64,000 nucleotides of DNA, taken from sequence record OK570374; one strand, given 5' to 3'. Source of the stretch: Escherichia phage UoN_LG358_1. Position 1 is the first letter of the stretch, and every line of letters starts with the position of its first letter. This document shows, one piece after another, positions 14,821-63,150 of this stretch. A program made the position numbers and the translations under genes. The notes under the pieces are model-generated. The model was not told where the DNA came from and searched no databases. It saw only the letters and a program-made list of their open reading frames with translations.

Positions 14821-14903
14821 AATATTCCTCTATAGAAACAGATTCAACGAAATAATTATAATAAGAAAAATGATAAGCGCAATAGTTAGTTTGTTCATAG
14901 CAG

Positions 14904-15215
14904 TCATACGGCCATTTTTCCTTTAATTACTGGGTGGCTTTCATAGTTTTTAAGAATAAAGTCGTTTATCTTCATATGAGTACAAACCCAATATAACTGC
15001 ATTTCAGTATCCCAATCTTCAAAACTATCTGGAAAATTAATTTCCAGTTCGCATAACTCTTTTGGCTCTCTGCAAAGAATTTCTTTACACTGTTCTGTAT
15101 GGTTCAAATATATGTGGGTATTGCCGCCAGTAAATACTAGATGCCCTGGTTTTAACCCAGTCATTTTAGCTATGATATGAATTAAAGCTCCGTAAGACGC
15201 GATATTAAATGGTAG
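14904..15215 (-). CDS. td: thymidylate synthase, exon 2
   Basis: exon begins CUACCAUUUAAUAUCGCG (LPFNIASYG) immediately after the intron-terminal G; C-terminal TS sequence. Confidence 0.85.
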   Translation of the reverse strand, partial: LPFNIASYGALIHIIAKMTGLKPGHLVFTGGNTHIYLNHTEQCKEILCREPKELCELEINFPDSFEDWDTEMQLYWVCTHMKINDFILKNYESHPVIKGKMAV

Positions 15216-16227
15216 CATTGTGTTCAGCTGAGGACGTTAATCTCAGCCCGGAATTTATCCAGCTGCATGTCACCATGCAGAGCAGACTATATCTTCATCT
15301 CAATGAGATGTCTATCGTTTCGAGCCACTTGGCCCTACTCCCTAAAGGGATAGTCGTTCGGCATTTAGCAATAAAACCAGTTCCATTTATCAGATTTTAC
15401 ACGGTATGTAACTAAGCCTGAAGAAATCTCAAAATGTCTAGCAGCATCTGCGGCGCATTCAAAAATAATACCATCACATGAAATTTTCTTAATATTAGAT
15501 GGCTTTCTGCCCTTTGCCTTGTTAGACAATATTTCTCGTGTTTCTTTTGAATGTTCTTTACCGAAGAACGGATTACTTTGTCCTGAACGGTCTCTACAAT
15601 TTGAACAAGTTTTAAATGCTGGGCTTATTCTTTTCCCGCACTTGCAAAACTTATGTTTTTCTGGGTTCCACCGTCCATTTAATTCACCTGGTTTACCATA
15701 AATTACTTTACGTCCATCAATACCAAGTTTTTCCATCTTAGCTTTAACAGTAGCAGCTCGCTTTTTTATAATTTCTTTCTTTAATGGATAATTAGTAAAA
15801 ACATCTCCAAAAGAAGCATCTGCGATGTTATAACCATTTTGTTTTGAATTTAGTGTTTTAATCCAGAAATTTTCTCGTTCAATAATTATATCTTTTTCGT
15901 ATGGAACTTCTTCCAATACAGAACATTCAAATACATTACCATGTTTATTATAAGACCGTTGGAGTTTTATAGAATGATGTGCATTATTAGATAAATCGGA
16001 AAAATGACGTTTCCATCTTTTATCAAAATCCTTTGCACTTCCAACATAAATCTTATTGTTTAAAACATTTTTAATTTGATAAATTCCACTTTTCATAAAC
16101 ACCTCTAAATTATAGAAGTATTTATTAAAGGGCGGTCCTACACATTTAGCACGGGATTGTCTACGAGAGAGGTTCCCCGTTTAGATAGATTACAAGTATA
16201 AGTCACCTTATACCCAGGCCTAAATTA
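15216..16227 (-). mobile_element. group I self-splicing intron in td
   Basis: interrupts TS coding sequence; intron 5' end reads UAAUUUAGGCCUGGGUAUAAGGUGACUUAUACUUGUAAUCUAUCUAAACGGGGAACCUCUC, near-identical to the T4 td intron start as recalled; exon 1 ends ...CUUGGGU. Confidence 0.85.
15365..16102 (-). CDS. intron-encoded GIY-YIG homing endonuclease I-TevI
   Basis: 245 aa; N-terminal GIY-YIG (SGIYQIKN...KIYVGSA), C-terminal ...KISCDGIIFECAADAARHFEISSGLVTYRVKSDKWNWFY as in I-TevI. Confidence 0.9.
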   Translation of the reverse strand: MFMKSGIYQIKNVLNNKIYVGSAKDFDKRWKRHFSDLSNNAHHSIKLQRSYNKHGNVFECSVLEEVPYEKDIIIERENFWIKTLNSKQNGYNIADASFGDVFTNYPLKKEIIKKRAATVKAKMEKLGIDGRKVIYGKPGELNGRWNPEKHKFCKCGKRISPAFKTCSNCRDRSGQSNPFFGKEHSKETREILSNKAKGRKPSNIKKISCDGIIFECAADAARHFEISSGLVTYRVKSDKWNWFYC

Positions 16228-16776
16228 ACCCAAGAAAACATCGACACTGCGTTGATACCACTGGAGGTCCAGAAACCCATTTCTTACGTTAAATTGATAT
16301 ACCATATGGCATGGTGGAAGCGCCATCTTAGAGAGCTCTAGAGGGTTCCAAGCTGTCACAATCTGCCTTCGGTCTGCCGGCATTTCTTTTATTCTATCAA
16401 TGACTAACTTCAATTGGTCCACGCCCATGAAATCACGCCATTGTTTACCATAAACCGGTCCTAGTTCACCGTCAGTATAACCCATCGAAACAGCTTGATT
16501 TTCATAATTATCATCCCAGACGGTTTTCCCTTCTGTTCGAGAACCATGTTGAATTTCGCGGAGGTCATCTACATTTGTTGAGCCAGATAAGAACCACAGC
16601 AATTCAGCAATGCACGATTTCCACGCGAGTTTCTTTGTTGTTACTGCGGGAAATCCTTCTTGTAAATCAAACCGAAGCTGAGTGCCAAATACAGCAATTG
16701 TTCCCGTGCCCGTACGATCATCAGTCTCATAGCCTTCGTCAAAAATGTGTTGAATTAGTTCTTGATATTGTTTCAT
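16228..16776 (-). CDS. td: thymidylate synthase, exon 1
   Basis: MKQYQELIQHIFDEGYETDDRTGTGT...LPPCHMVYQFNV (TS active-site region); in-frame UAA at intron start. Confidence 0.9.
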
Positions 16777-17123
16777 TGTTTTCCAACTTTAAAGAGAATT
16801 TCAGCGCCTTTCTTTTCAAAACGTCCTTGCATCCAAAGGAGACCATTTTCAACTTTCATATAACCAAGATTAATATAGTCCAACATTTGACGATTACTGA
16901 AAAACGCTTTAAATGTTCCATGGTTAGAACGTACATATATACCATTAGTGCACGCAGAGTGGATATTCTCCAACGGCGCCCTAACCTCATAAAACCCGTG
17001 AGGAATAGTAACATATTTCTCTGGATTTCGTTTAAACTGGTCAATCGTAGGGGCCATTCCATCGATAACCAAAGCCCAGTTCTTTTGCTTCTCTTCAACA
17101 ATTAAATCTAATTTAGCAGTCAT
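16773..17123 (-). CDS. hypothetical protein (116 aa)
   Basis: ORF between frd and td, 4-nt overlap with td start. Confidence 0.45.
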   Translation of the reverse strand: MTAKLDLIVEEKQKNWALVIDGMAPTIDQFKRNPEKYVTIPHGFYEVRAPLENIHSACTNGIYVRSNHGTFKAFFSNRQMLDYINLGYMKVENGLLWMQGRFEKKGAEILFKVGKQ

Positions 17124-58708: not shown

Positions 58709-59068
58709 TTAAAATAATTTGAAACGTTTTTTATTACGCTCAGCTAACGCTTGCTCAATTTGAATTTTAACACATTTTTCAACATGCGGAGCTAGTTCTG
58801 CTTTTCTATCTTCGGATAATGTAGAAAAATCTACAGAAATTTCGTTTCCATTGTGATTTATTGATGTGACATAAACTATATGCGAAGACCCATCTTCTAA
58901 TGTTAGCAAAATTTCTTGTACTATATTAGCCATTGCCTTTTTGACAATATCTAATGATTTTTGGTAAACTCTTTCTGTCCTCTCAAATTCCCCCTCCTGA
59001 GAGGGGGCTTCTTCGACGACTTCAAGATTTAAATCTAATTCGCTTAAATCATAATCGTCTTGTTTCAT
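58709..59068 (-). CDS. 40: gp40-like protein (head vertex assembly), positional
   Basis: 119 aa ORF between uvsX and 41 as in T4. Confidence 0.5.
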   Translation of the reverse strand: MKQDDYDLSELDLNLEVVEEAPSQEGEFERTERVYQKSLDIVKKAMANIVQEILLTLEDGSSHIVYVTSINHNGNEISVDFSTLSEDRKAELAPHVEKCVKIQIEQALAERNKKRFKLF

Positions 59069-60231
59069 TATTCGTCCATCATAGAGTCAAGGTCATCTTC
59101 AATTGCTGCCGGAGACGGAGCATGAGAACCTTCGGGAGCTTTGAAAACCTCAGTTTTTGAATTAATCAATGCATCAACTTCAGCATCAACAACCGCATTA
59201 CTATCAATTGCGCCCAGTTGATATTTACGTTTAATTGCATCACGGAATGGTTGATGCTTGAACATCGGTCCCCAGAAATCTACGCATGATGTAGCTGCGG
59301 CGCGCCATGATTTTTCTTCACGAACCATTTCACCGGTTTCAATGTCCAAATATTCGCGAGCATACCAACCATTTTTTGGTTTAACTACAAACCCAAGCTC
59401 CAATGCCATTTCAAGCAAACCGGAATACGGGTCAATACCACCATCAAATTTAACATCAATAAAGAACTTAGATTTCTCTTTAACTGTACGAGATTTTTCT
59501 GCGTTTAAAACAAACTGATAACCTTGCAAATCAGTACCGTCTTTAATCTGACGTTTGCCGATAATGAACACGGTATCTGCAGAATACATCGGGCCAGTAC
59601 CACCGGTCATTACCGTTTTACTGAACATTTCAATAGTTTCAATTGTATGGTTAACTGCAACACATGGAATGTTCTTAATACTGAAATATGGAGTAACGAT
59701 ACGGAACAGAGATTTCAATGCTTTCGCACGTGTCATATCTGCAACCGATTTTTCATTCAACGCGTCTTCAGTTTCTTTCTTGGAAGCGAGGTTACCAATT
59801 GAGTCGATGAATACAATAACCTTTTCACCACGCTCAATTTCTTCCAGCTGATTTACCATATCAATCTTAAGTTGTTCAACAGACTGAACAGGAGTATGAA
59901 CAACACGGTCAGGGTCAACGCCCATAGATTTCAGATAAGCCGGAGTAATACCGAATTCACTATCATAGAACAGACAAATTGCATCTGGATGTTTTGTCAT
60001 ATAAGCACTGACCATTGTCAGAGACATATTCGATTTAAAGTGCTTTGACGGACCAGCAAAGATTGTTAAACCAGACTGCATACCACCATCTAATGCCCCA
60101 CTGATTGCAATGTTCAGCATCGGAATTTTAGTACGGATAACGTCTTTTTCGTTGAAGAATTTTGACTTAGTTAGTTCCGCGGTCATTTTAGAAGTGGATG
60201 CTTTAATCAGACGAGATTTTAAATCAGACAT
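59068..60231 (-). CDS. uvsX: UvsX recombinase (RecA-like)
   Basis: 387 aa; Walker A GPSKHFKS; acidic C-terminus. Confidence 0.9.
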   Translation of the reverse strand: MSDLKSRLIKASTSKMTAELTKSKFFNEKDVIRTKIPMLNIAISGALDGGMQSGLTIFAGPSKHFKSNMSLTMVSAYMTKHPDAICLFYDSEFGITPAYLKSMGVDPDRVVHTPVQSVEQLKIDMVNQLEEIERGEKVIVFIDSIGNLASKKETEDALNEKSVADMTRAKALKSLFRIVTPYFSIKNIPCVAVNHTIETIEMFSKTVMTGGTGPMYSADTVFIIGKRQIKDGTDLQGYQFVLNAEKSRTVKEKSKFFIDVKFDGGIDPYSGLLEMALELGFVVKPKNGWYAREYLDIETGEMVREEKSWRAAATSCVDFWGPMFKHQPFRDAIKRKYQLGAIDSNAVVDAEVDALINSKTEVFKAPEGSHAPSPAAIEDDLDSMMDE

Positions 60232-60512
60232 TCATTTTTTCCATAAGTCTCCATTATATTTTTCTCATAGGTTTAAAGGATAGAGTAATTATATCAAAAC
60301 AAATTTAAAGCGATTTAACTTTTATTACGCACTTAATTGGTGAGTTGACCATAGATTTTCGGGGTTTAGCCATTTTAACCTCAGGTACATCCTCAGTTCT
60401 TTTAATCCAACTTTTGTATGGACAGTATTTTTCTTTCTTGGTCATGATATTTCCGGTTTAAATTTTTGAAAGAAGGTACACTAGAAGTATACCTTCGCGA
60501 AAATTTTTAAAC

Positions 60513-61589
60513 TTACAGGTCAATAGCCTTGCGGAACTCTTCTTGCCAAATTGGTTTTTCATCAAGATATTTTTGAAGAATTTTGTGCTGATATTTCAAA
60601 GTTTCAACACGGAACTCTTCATCTTCTTTAATCTTGTTGATTTTATCTACTAATTCTTGACGATTACTCACATAAAAGAAATCATTACCTTCCATGATAT
60701 TCATGTCAGGGTCAAACGTGCTATCGAAGAATGCCACTGCAGTAGATGCTAGAGCTTCCCATACACGAGGAGTGATTTGGTTGTTATCGTAGGTTTTATC
60801 ACCTAATACAATAGTAGCATACGCGGTTGAGTTGCGTTGAACCATTTCACGAGAGTCTACTTTACCGGGGAATACCGGCGGAGTCGTCCAAGGAAATTCT
60901 GGGTTCTTGAACTGTTCTGCTTTCACTGAACCAAAGAATTCAACATCCAATCCAGTATCAAATAGGTATTCAACCATTTTAGCTTCACGGTTACCAGAAC
61001 GGAAAGTGCCGCCATAAATCAGGTCTCGCATTTTGATGCCATCTGCGGCAATCTTAAAGACACTATGATACATTTTATGACGGTCCAAAGCAAAATGAAC
61101 GAATTCTAGTTTATCGGATAAACATCCAACTAAACGATCAGAATGAATTTTCTTGCATTGCTCTAGATTTCTTCCTTGAGATACAATACGCATTGGAGAT
61201 GTTACAATGAATTGTTCTTCTTTATATTTACTGGACCATTTCTTTTTAGACATCCTTCGCCAAGCTTGCTCAAACGGAAGACGAATATCGGTGAACAAAT
61301 AATAAATTTTTGATTTATACTTATTCATGAACATATAAGCTTCTTTGTTCATCTTATTTTCTTCGCCGCCATAGAAGTTCAGAGCAGCATTAACGACCAA
61401 TAAGCGGTCATACACATTCGGGTCTTTTACTGAATCGAAAGAAATTCCATACTGTGTATTTTTCATTGAAATAAGGTCAACATCAAGACCCATATCTTTT
61501 AAACATTCGGACAAATAAATTGTTTCTGAAGCAGGGGTTGTTTTAAACCCCTGGATGTTATTGCCCATATTAATAATAGCAATTTTCAT
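60513..61589 (-). CDS. bgt: DNA beta-glucosyltransferase
   Basis: 358 aa; MKIAIINMGNN...ETIYL...KYKSKIYYLFTDIRLPF...IYGG.FRSG.RE.KMVE.LFDTGL...KAIDL matches recalled T4 BGT. Confidence 0.85.
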   Translation of the reverse strand: MKIAIINMGNNIQGFKTTPASETIYLSECLKDMGLDVDLISMKNTQYGISFDSVKDPNVYDRLLVVNAALNFYGGEENKMNKEAYMFMNKYKSKIYYLFTDIRLPFEQAWRRMSKKKWSSKYKEEQFIVTSPMRIVSQGRNLEQCKKIHSDRLVGCLSDKLEFVHFALDRHKMYHSVFKIAADGIKMRDLIYGGTFRSGNREAKMVEYLFDTGLDVEFFGSVKAEQFKNPEFPWTTPPVFPGKVDSREMVQRNSTAYATIVLGDKTYDNNQITPRVWEALASTAVAFFDSTFDPDMNIMEGNDFFYVSNRQELVDKINKIKEDEEFRVETLKYQHKILQKYLDEKPIWQEEFRKAIDL

Positions 61590-62422
61590 AGTGTCGGTTC
61601 AATCTCGCTAAATTTATGAAAAGCATCTGACTTCTGCTTTTTAGCAACACACATACGAAGTACTTTCAAAGGTTCATCAGTACCAAACATAGTTTTGGTT
61701 GGGTCACCTTCTGATTTCCACCGAGCTTGAGTTGGGAAGTCAGCATGAATTTTTTCCAGCGCTCTGTTCTGTTTAGCAGCATTACGCATAGATGATACAC
61801 CGCCTGGAGCTTGTCCTTTACCTGATTTAACGAGATATTTAAAAATCGCCAAATGAGGATAACCCATATTAATGAGTTTAAGAAACGCGTATGTATCTTC
61901 GGATAGGTCTACTATACCATATCCAATGTCATCGGCAGAAAGTTTGCTTAAATCATAAAAAGTATTTGTAAACCCGTAAGAGTTCTCACGGAAATGACCC
62001 CATTTAGAGTCAATCTTGAATATTGGCAAGCGAGCGTGACCATGATAAAAGCCGCAGTCCATCGCTGTTTCAACATAAAGACAAAGATTATTAAATTCAT
62101 CCCAGGTCATTCCAACATCATGGAGAATGCGCCGGTCATCTTTTTCGCGAATTTCCGTTGTATGAATAGTAGTATCATCATCCAACATCCAAATTCGTTG
62201 TCCTTGATACATTTCGGTGATTAAACGACGAGTACCAGCAATCCCATTTACATCATCCGGGATAGTTACTATTTTAGCAATTGTGCTATATCGAGTTTCG
62301 TATTCTTCTTTTTGAGACTCGCGAACTACAAGATGAGCGACATAACCTTCAGGGAACATGTCTAGGGCAGTAACTGCCCCGGCACGATTATAACTTGGAA
62401 TTACAAATTGAATCATTTCCAA
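61586..62422 (-). CDS. GT-A fold glycosyltransferase (second DNA glycosyltransferase candidate)
   Basis: 278 aa; FVIPSYNRAG start and DxD-type motif IWMLDDDTT. Confidence 0.5.
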   Translation of the reverse strand: MEMIQFVIPSYNRAGAVTALDMFPEGYVAHLVVRESQKEEYETRYSTIAKIVTIPDDVNGIAGTRRLITEMYQGQRIWMLDDDTTIHTTEIREKDDRRILHDVGMTWDEFNNLCLYVETAMDCGFYHGHARLPIFKIDSKWGHFRENSYGFTNTFYDLSKLSADDIGYGIVDLSEDTYAFLKLINMGYPHLAIFKYLVKSGKGQAPGGVSSMRNAAKQNRALEKIHADFPTQARWKSEGDPTKTMFGTDEPLKVLRMCVAKKQKSDAFHKFSEIEPTL

Positions 62423-63150
62423 TAACCTTTGTAATCTTTCTTTGGTATATGAGTTTCACCAGTGTGATAAAAATGGTCAACTAGATAAAATTGATTTTCA
62501 TATACATGGAGGCTTCCGGCGTTCCAAATAATGTCACCAACTACATATTTTTTATCGCGACCGCAGTTAAGTGTCTGTACTAATAATTCTAATACATGTT
62601 TTTGCCAAGCATAGTCATTACGATAACCTGCCCAGCAATCGTTGCTTCTCATACTCACAACAGCATGAACTTGCTCATCGCGAATTAAGTATTGAACCGT
62701 GTTTGTACACATGAAATCACTCATACCGTCACGGTTATAATCAGTCTGCATACTTGGACGAGTATAAATCATAATTCCACGGCGAGAATCTGGATTGACA
62801 CTCAGTTCAGCCGCACAACTTGCAAATTGGCTATAATTATCTTTATTCCAAATCGCCCATCCGTAGTTTGAGTTAATCTCGCCGTTTTTGGATGAAATCT
62901 GGTCCCAAATTGCTGGAGTTTTTCCTGGAATGTCTTTAACGAATAAACTTTGAGACTTATACCATTCTAATTCGCGGGCTACATACTCATCATTAACTGA
63001 ACCAAAAATAAGTTCTTCATCTGCAACAAAAGACGCGCCGATAATTTCAATAGTTTTTACGCCAGTTTTGTCAATAACAAACTCTTCATTTTCGAGAGCT
63101 ACAGCAAATTCCTGACGAATGTCTTGTACTGTCAAAGGTGTGATAATCAT
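62413..63150 (-). CDS. 42: dCMP hydroxymethylase gp42
   Basis: 245 aa; ...DKTGVKTIEIIGASFVADE...RELEWYKSQSLFVKDIPG...PDSRRGIMIYTRPSMQ.DYN.DGMSDFMCTNTVQYLIRD matches recalled T4 gp42. Confidence 0.9.
   Translation of the reverse strand: MIITPLTVQDIRQEFAVALENEEFVIDKTGVKTIEIIGASFVADEELIFGSVNDEYVARELEWYKSQSLFVKDIPGKTPAIWDQISSKNGEINSNYGWAIWNKDNYSQFASCAAELSVNPDSRRGIMIYTRPSMQTDYNRDGMSDFMCTNTVQYLIRDEQVHAVVSMRSNDCWAGYRNDYAWQKHVLELLVQTLNCGRDKKYVVGDIIWNAGSLHVYENQFYLVDHFYHTGETHIPKKDYKGYWK

Follow-up and report, generated by a model that had tools for sequence, protein, structure and literature searches.

In a 64,000-nucleotide (nt) stretch of Escherichia phage UoN_LG358_1 (OK570374; hereafter the window, to whose positions coordinates refer unless another sequence is named), gene 42 is followed by two glycosyltransferase genes: one of the TET-associated glycosyltransferase (TAGT) family, and bgt, which encodes a beta-glucosyltransferase. 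Together, these three genes probably constitute a translationally coupled DNA-hypermodification cassette that would make beta-gentiobiosyl-hydroxymethylcytosine (beta-gentiobiosyl-hmC) on some sites. The case is evenly balanced that S16/STP4-a-type phages, and other lineages with both bgt and TAGT, carry a chemically undescribed modification: a disaccharide joined to hmC through a beta-linked first glucose, either beta-gentiobiosyl-hmC or one of its linkage isomers. The gene pair is not novel, having been correctly recognised, annotated and published between 2010 and 2018; what interest remains is confined to the chemistry of the bgt+TAGT product.

The 3-kb locus is 100% identical in DNA sequence to that of Salmonella phage STP4-a (Gelderlandvirus, S16 group). 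The listing of open reading frames (ORFs) places the pair on the minus strand, at 60513-61589 and 61586-62422, as did an earlier note on this DNA. Transcription therefore runs from gene 42 through the 276/278-residue TAGT and the 358-residue bgt to a 46-residue ORF and uvsX. The cassette comprises the following features.

62413..63150, minus strand: gene 42, deoxycytidine monophosphate (dCMP) hydroxymethylase, 245 amino acids (PF00303; PHROG 160; annotation STP4a_037)

61586..62416, minus strand: TAGT-family GT-A glycosyltransferase, 276 amino acids from ATG, orthologue of T2/T6 ba-gt

61586..62422, minus strand: longest-ORF version of TAGT, 278 amino acids from TTG at 62422 (ORF listing)

60513..61589, minus strand: DNA beta-glucosyltransferase gene bgt, 358 amino acids, GT-B fold, T4 BGT family (PF09198; PHROG 7922)

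62413..62416, minus strand: ATGA overlap of the gene 42 stop (TGA) and TAGT start (ATG), sequence GGAAATGATTC

61586..61589, minus strand: ATGA overlap of the TAGT stop (TGA) and bgt start (ATG), sequence CACTATGAAAA

62174..62182, minus strand: TAGT codons D79-D80-D81, the DxD metal/nucleotide-sugar motif (codons checked; they translate to DDD)

61895..61900, minus strand: TAGT codons E173-D174, the "ED" motif (position from the structure model; codons checked)

Judged by these junctions, gene 42, TAGT and bgt appear to form a single translationally coupled unit. Across the region, sites resembling promoters or terminators are no more frequent than shuffling predicts, giving no internal signal beyond chance. 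The true TAGT start is most likely the ATG at 62416 (276 residues), because it overlaps the gene 42 stop codon and is also the start in the RefSeq entry STP4a_036; the longest ORF simply begins at a further TTG, at 62422. The earlier note had described a glycosyltransferase pair between uvsX and gene 42, overlapping by 4 nt and adjoined by dCMP hydroxymethylase, and this layout is correct (ORF listing). It had also placed the 278-residue ORF downstream of bgt; since both genes lie on the minus strand, that ORF is in fact upstream (5') in transcription.

The TAGT protein matches PHROG 842 ("beta-glucosyl-HMC-alpha-glucosyltransferase") over its full length (E 3.7e-82), and is 64% identical to the phage T2 enzyme over 276 residues (E 1e-121). 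The T2 homologue occupies the same slot, directly 3' of gene 42, so that the comparison with T2/T6 enzymes proposed in the earlier note yields a full-length and syntenic match. Similarity to the PF20691 (TAGT) profile is confined to the N-terminal third and scores 29.4 bits, against a gathering score of 27.5. An exhaustive HMMER search defines a family of 223 representatives, and all 122 aligned homologues match PF20691. Residues D80, D174 and G206 are invariant in the 122-sequence alignment, and P7, R11, R63, D79, D81, G185, G205 and R211 are at least 90% conserved; the window protein keeps every one of them.

The segments FVIPSYNRAG (residues 4-13 of the ATG-started protein) and RIWMLDDDTTI (residues 74-84) are both present, and their earlier reading as a GT-A N terminus and a DxD motif is correct. 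An AlphaFold2 model is confident over the whole length (predicted local distance difference test score 95.0; predicted template modelling score 0.92). In this model, strand 74-78 ends at DDD and helix 173-183 begins with E173-D174; the predicted fold is GT-A, and it carries the DxD motif. Analogy with GT2 enzymes would make D174 the catalytic base of an inverting GT-A enzyme. Searches of the PDB with the TAGT sequence and profile gave no significant match, and no NCBIfam model matches TAGT or bgt. The earlier note had regarded this gene as an "extra" enzyme without a T4 counterpart at this position. In T4, gene 42 is indeed directly followed by bgt; however, T2 and its relatives carry a homologue in exactly this slot, and the gene is already annotated in databases and listed for STP4-a in Table 1 of PMC6024577.

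The 358-residue protein is, as proposed, a homologue of T4 beta-glucosyltransferase (BGT). It covers the complete PF09198 profile (T4 beta-glucosyltransferase; CAZy GT63; positions 1-167 of 167; E 2.6e-62) and matches PHROG 7922 (E 5e-226). Its residues 1-358 align to residues 1-351 of T4 BGT (PDB 1bgt; phmmer E 3.2e-113), with 50% identity to T4 BGT by tblastn. T4 BGT residues E22, D100, R191, R195, R269 and E272, which we take to be the catalytic base and residues that bind uridine diphosphate (UDP), are all identical in the alignment to 1bgt; E22 and D101 (bgt numbering) were confirmed in the window sequence. The family matches (PF09198 and PHROG 7922 for bgt; PHROG 842, and PF20691 above its gathering score, for TAGT) indicate that neither gene is a chance ORF.

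The gene 42 product (gp42) matches PF00303 (E 1.6e-15) and PHROG 160 (E 7e-65), is 69-71% identical to T4 and T2 gp42, and is annotated as dCMP hydroxymethylase in STP4-a (STP4a_037). Further hmC-pathway functions are annotated in that genome: dCTPase, dNMP kinase, DenB-like, and Alc-like. Gene 42 is labelled "thymidylate synthase" in a number of RefSeq and GenBank records (window 62413-63150, plus its homologues at loci L002, L003, L009 and L013), a misnaming that hides hmC-DNA phages from keyword searches.

The critical difference from T2 and T6 is the missing agt gene. With T2 agt as the tblastn query, the best E value is 0.94 for the complete STP4-a genome and 2.1 for the window; none is annotated, and in STP4-a only small ORFs occupy the usual place of agt, between genes 47 and 55. 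With no agt in STP4-a or the window, bgt is the only candidate primary glycosyltransferase, and the T2/T6 acceptor, alpha-glucosyl-hmC, cannot form here. For the same reason, a database name that implies an alpha-glucosyl acceptor cannot be literally correct in this phage. By sequence and synteny the gene is an orthologue of the T2/T6 functional class, which adds a second glucose onto alpha-glucosyl-hmC; the agt that accompanies that class in the same genome is not present. If TAGT acts as a second-sugar transferase, therefore, the first sugar must be beta-linked.

No sugar-nucleotide synthesis gene was found among the large unannotated STP4-a ORFs checked, so a host pool such as UDP-glucose must supply the donor. 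(An STP4-a "nucleotidyltransferase" was considered as a sugar-pathway gene and rejected as an RlaP RNA-repair-type protein; other large ORFs are AAA or HNH-like.)

This suggests a pathway in three steps. First, gp42 would make hydroxymethyl-dCMP, which replaces cytosine in phage DNA and serves as the sugar acceptor. After replication, the bgt product (GT-B, inverting, like T4 BGT) would move glucose from host UDP-glucose to the hydroxymethyl group, forming beta-glucosyl-hmC. TAGT (GT-A, with DxD, presumably inverting with D174 as base) would then add a second, beta-linked glucose to the first, most likely at O-6 by analogy with T2/T6, to give beta-gentiobiosyl-hmC on some fraction of sites. 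The analysis shows the gene identities, the fold, the conserved catalytic motifs, the lack of agt, the strong purifying selection and the recurrence of the TAGT-bgt pair; the donor sugar, acceptor, linkage and extent of modification in this scheme are those that we infer. Extent is not predictable, given that the gentiobiosyl share is 5% in T2 and 72% in T6 despite homologous enzymes (PMC6024577). A second sugar on hmC is nevertheless what homology predicts, and the earlier note's formulation, a gentiobiosyl-type disaccharide or other, is supported as the right level of claim.

The gene order 42, TAGT, bgt recurs in Karamvirus, Moonvirus, Muldoonvirus (whose version has one extra ORF), a Tequatrovirus (KMB26), Acinetobacter-type contigs, and two metagenomic lineages. 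At least seven lineages keep the TAGT ORF at full length and translationally coupled. Across the phage collection, grouped by host in the phage name, the 28 TAGT of Salmonella phages equal 16 bgt plus 12 agt; Enterobacter phages have 27 TAGT and 27 bgt, and are not among the listed agt groups; and Klebsiella phages have 136 TAGT and 136 agt, and are not among the listed bgt groups. These counts fit one primary glycosyltransferase per TAGT-bearing phage.

Selection has kept the TAGT gene. Among STP4-a, CC31 and Moon (Gelderlandvirus, Karamvirus and Moonvirus, respectively), the ratio of nonsynonymous to synonymous divergence (dN/dS) for TAGT is 0.04-0.07 at dS 0.74-0.95, compared with 0.04-0.08 for UvsX and 0.11-0.14 for gp42. 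TAGT is thus under strong purifying selection, as tight as that on UvsX and tighter than that on gp42. This selection, the pairing with bgt in at least seven lineages and the lack of agt here argue that TAGT most likely adds a second glucose to beta-glucosyl-hmC. The same data bear on whether TAGT might be a functionless leftover in a bgt-only background, its natural acceptor alpha-glucosyl-hmC being missing. The absence of agt, and a PF20691 match limited to the N-terminal third at 29.4 bits, could be read that way; but low dN/dS at substantial synonymous divergence, intact invariant residues, a full-length coupled ORF across lineages, and a structure model confident along its whole length leave a relic strongly disfavoured and very improbable.

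Protein identity among the same three phages (loci L008 and L013 compared) is 93-95% for TAGT, 88-92% for bgt and 71-77% for gp42; at synonymous sites, all three genes have diverged to a similar degree. The dCMP hydroxymethylase is therefore the fast-evolving member of the trio. Recent horizontal transfer was considered as the cause of the greater conservation of TAGT and bgt, and rejected because dS of 0.7-1.8 is too large.

Several points weigh against a second glucose on beta-glucosyl-hmC. The characterised TAGT homologue uses an alpha-linked first glucose as its acceptor. The family includes solitary members, which must act directly on a base. The bgt-partnered TAGTs are 93-95% identical among themselves and 64-72% identical to agt-partnered TAGTs, whereas gp42 identity is 71-77% in all comparisons; some functional divergence is therefore possible. 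The loop after DxD (TAGT residues 98-112) differs in length and sequence between the partner groups. Acceptor use in the bgt+TAGT combination, where the first glucose is beta-linked, is posed as a question in PMC13216743, and no nucleoside analysis of Gelderlandvirus, Karamvirus, Moonvirus, Muldoonvirus or any bgt+TAGT phage was found in the searchable literature.

The solitary members suggest that TAGT might instead be a second primary transferase acting on hmC in parallel with bgt, much as agt and bgt share sites in T4; the DNA would then carry two kinds of mono-glycosylated hmC and no disaccharide. The family is broad, as its 223 representatives show; members without nearby agt or bgt must act on the modified base itself; solitary TAGTs are reported in 288 of 753 genomes (PMC13216743); and the T2/T6 acceptor is unavailable here. 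However, T2/T6 agt mutants are not known from classical genetics to carry any glucose, which speaks against use of bare hmC by the T2/T6 enzyme. The nearest characterised enzyme, at 64% identity and the same locus, adds a second sugar, and T6 with g-gt deleted retains alpha-glucosyl-hmC (bioRxiv 10.64898/2026.02.25.707755). Solitary TAGTs are much more distant, at 38-44% identity. Parallel primary transfer is therefore considered unlikely.

The divergence between partner groups suggests another possibility, that TAGT adds a second sugar other than glucose, or forms a linkage other than beta-1,6, on beta-glucosyl-hmC, and so makes a disaccharide unlike gentiobiose. The tight bgt-partnered clade differs from agt-partnered clades at 28-36% of positions, the post-DxD loop included, and fold neighbours use many different donors. 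In an Acinetobacter-type relative, phosphomannomutase and cupin/glucose-6-phosphate isomerase genes beside TAGT-bgt hint at other donors in some lineages. Yet identity to a UDP-glucose enzyme and retention of all invariant residues favour the same donor, the large STP4-a ORFs checked supply no sugar-nucleotide pathway gene, and no partner-specific residue survives scrutiny. A different sugar or linkage is accordingly quite unlikely.

Partner type does not split TAGTs cleanly. The STP4-a protein is 72% identical to an agt-partnered Klebsiella (Jiaodavirus) TAGT, and the agt-partnered T2 and PKO111 clades share only 64% identity. Among eight TAGT sequences, F142 versus Y and V169 versus I separate bgt- from agt-partnered proteins; F142 lies beside the invariant RENSYGFTNT motif, and Acinetobacter-type bgt-partnered TAGTs also have F at 142. 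As a determinant of partner this residue fails, since homologues P0007 (Y) and P0003 (W) both have a bgt neighbour. In the sequences compared, no single TAGT residue appears to track partner type.

If TAGT does extend beta-glucosyl-hmC, then either TAGTs accept both anomers, or the bgt-partnered clade has evolved a distinct acceptor specificity. DNA so modified could escape alpha-specific glycosylases, such as Brig1, as well as enzymes that remove single glucose units.

Several relatives have layouts of their own. Escherichia phage vB-Eco-KMB26 (Tequatrovirus, OR539218.1; L010 19632-27699 and L014 29000-44000) has all three of agt, TAGT and bgt, in the order 42, TAGT, bgt, uvsX; its TAGT is 96% identical to that of T2, and its divergent bgt 56% to that of T4 and 45% to that of STP4-a. 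KMB26 appears to represent the complete state; one deletion from it could give either the T4 layout (42, bgt) or the T2 layout (42, TAGT). With a T2-type TAGT beside bgt it was considered as a natural test of acceptor promiscuity, and set aside because it also has agt. Muldoonvirus-type phages (Serratia PS2, Cronobacter VP8, and a metagenomic relative) carry an extra ORF of 308-313 residues between gene 42 and TAGT (L009 1629-2555; L011 2516-3442; L015 3014-3955); it has no Pfam match, and could be a further component of the modification module. Finally, an Acinetobacter-associated T4-like contig (L016 7825-8813; GCA_054473695.1, ACBZPL010000006.1) has the block 42, TAGT, bgt, 40, 41, followed by genes of the cupin/glucose-6-phosphate-isomerase and phosphomannomutase families, so that sugar metabolism adjoins the transferase pair.

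Beyond bgt, the locus continues with two more features.

60305..60445: 46-residue ORF between bgt and uvsX (PHROG 34014)

59068..60231: uvsX

The 46-residue ORF is probably a real small gene, since it matches over its full length a phage family of unknown function (PHROG 34014, E 2e-35).

Across the whole window, 53 of 128 tiles of 500 nt match STP4-a exactly. Identity to STP4-a is roughly 92% at about 20-34 kb, and 99.6-100% at 47-64 kb; S16 is 98.2% identical in DNA sequence to the glycosyltransferase region. With so few exact tiles and some stretches near 92%, the window is a mosaic close relative or variant of STP4-a in which the glycosyltransferase locus is unchanged. Elsewhere in the window (about 14900-16800; STP4-a 134649-136521), the annotation splits the thymidylate synthase gene into two segments with a homing endonuclease gene between them, as expected of a td group I intron that carries an I-TevI-like endonuclease.

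S16-like phages are in use for Salmonella biocontrol, and predicting their host range, engineering them and base-calling their DNA by nanopore would all benefit from knowledge of what that DNA actually carries. Which host defences a T-even-type phage escapes depends on its hmC sugars. These defences include type I and II restriction, McrBC, GmrSD-type enzymes, glycosylases specific for alpha-glucosyl groups, such as Brig1, and some CRISPR systems, as well as deglucosylating enzymes that are unable to act on gentiobiosyl-hmC (PMC13216743; bioRxiv 10.64898/2026.02.25.707755). The gene pair itself is ordinary; the worthwhile point is the product of the bgt+TAGT combination.

The gene pair is already on record. 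GenBank and RefSeq name the pair beta-glucosyltransferase and beta-glucosyl-HMC-alpha-glucosyltransferase. Petrov et al. (2010) pointed out bgt plus ba-gt in CC31 as a unique combination (PMC2993671). Table 1 of Thomas et al. (2018) lists for STP4-a no a-gt, a b-gt (YP_009126243.1, 50% to T4) and a ba-gt (YP_009126244.1, 64% to T2) (PMC6024577). A 2026 Nucleic Acids Research survey found that either primary glycosyltransferase is frequently accompanied by a TAGT, and its model of the T6 TAGT has a GT-A fold that is sister to GT2 (PMC13216743). The T2/T6 TAGT puts a second, beta-linked glucose on alpha-glucosyl-hmC (PMC13216743, PMC13390438, PMC6024577), and T6-type TAGT has been tied to alpha-gentiobiosyl-hydroxymethyldeoxycytidine by high-performance liquid chromatography and mass spectrometry (PMC13390438).

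Set against known systems, the window cassette is closest to the bgt plus ba-gt pair of CC31 and S16 (Karamvirus and Gelderlandvirus), with identical composition, order and overlaps. Identity to the CC31 proteins is 95% for TAGT and 90% for bgt, and there is no substantive difference; the window is another member of that group. The ba-gt of T2/T6 (g-gt; TAGT PF20691; glucosyl-DNA beta-glucosyltransferase) shares full-length identity, length, the slot after gene 42 with an ATGA overlap, the DxD, ED and GG motifs, and the GT-A fold reported for the T6 enzyme in PMC13216743. In contrast to the window, T2/T6 use agt to make alpha-glucosyl-hmC, whereas here agt is absent and bgt lies directly downstream of TAGT; loop 98-112 is also 1-2 residues shorter here, and of different sequence. 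Where T2/T6 thus begin with an alpha-linked glucose from agt, the proposed pathway would begin with a beta-linked glucose from bgt. Solved GT2-type GT-A enzymes (for example TarP/TarS, AvpGT, SpsA and K4CP) share the overall fold, with DxD at the end of a central strand. T4 BGT (PF09198; PDB 1bgt/1jg7) resembles the window bgt in end-to-end identity, domain architecture, conserved residues, and location between gene 42 and uvsX. In T4, however, bgt directly follows gene 42 and shares hmC sites with agt, whereas here it follows TAGT and is the only recognisable primary glucosyltransferase.

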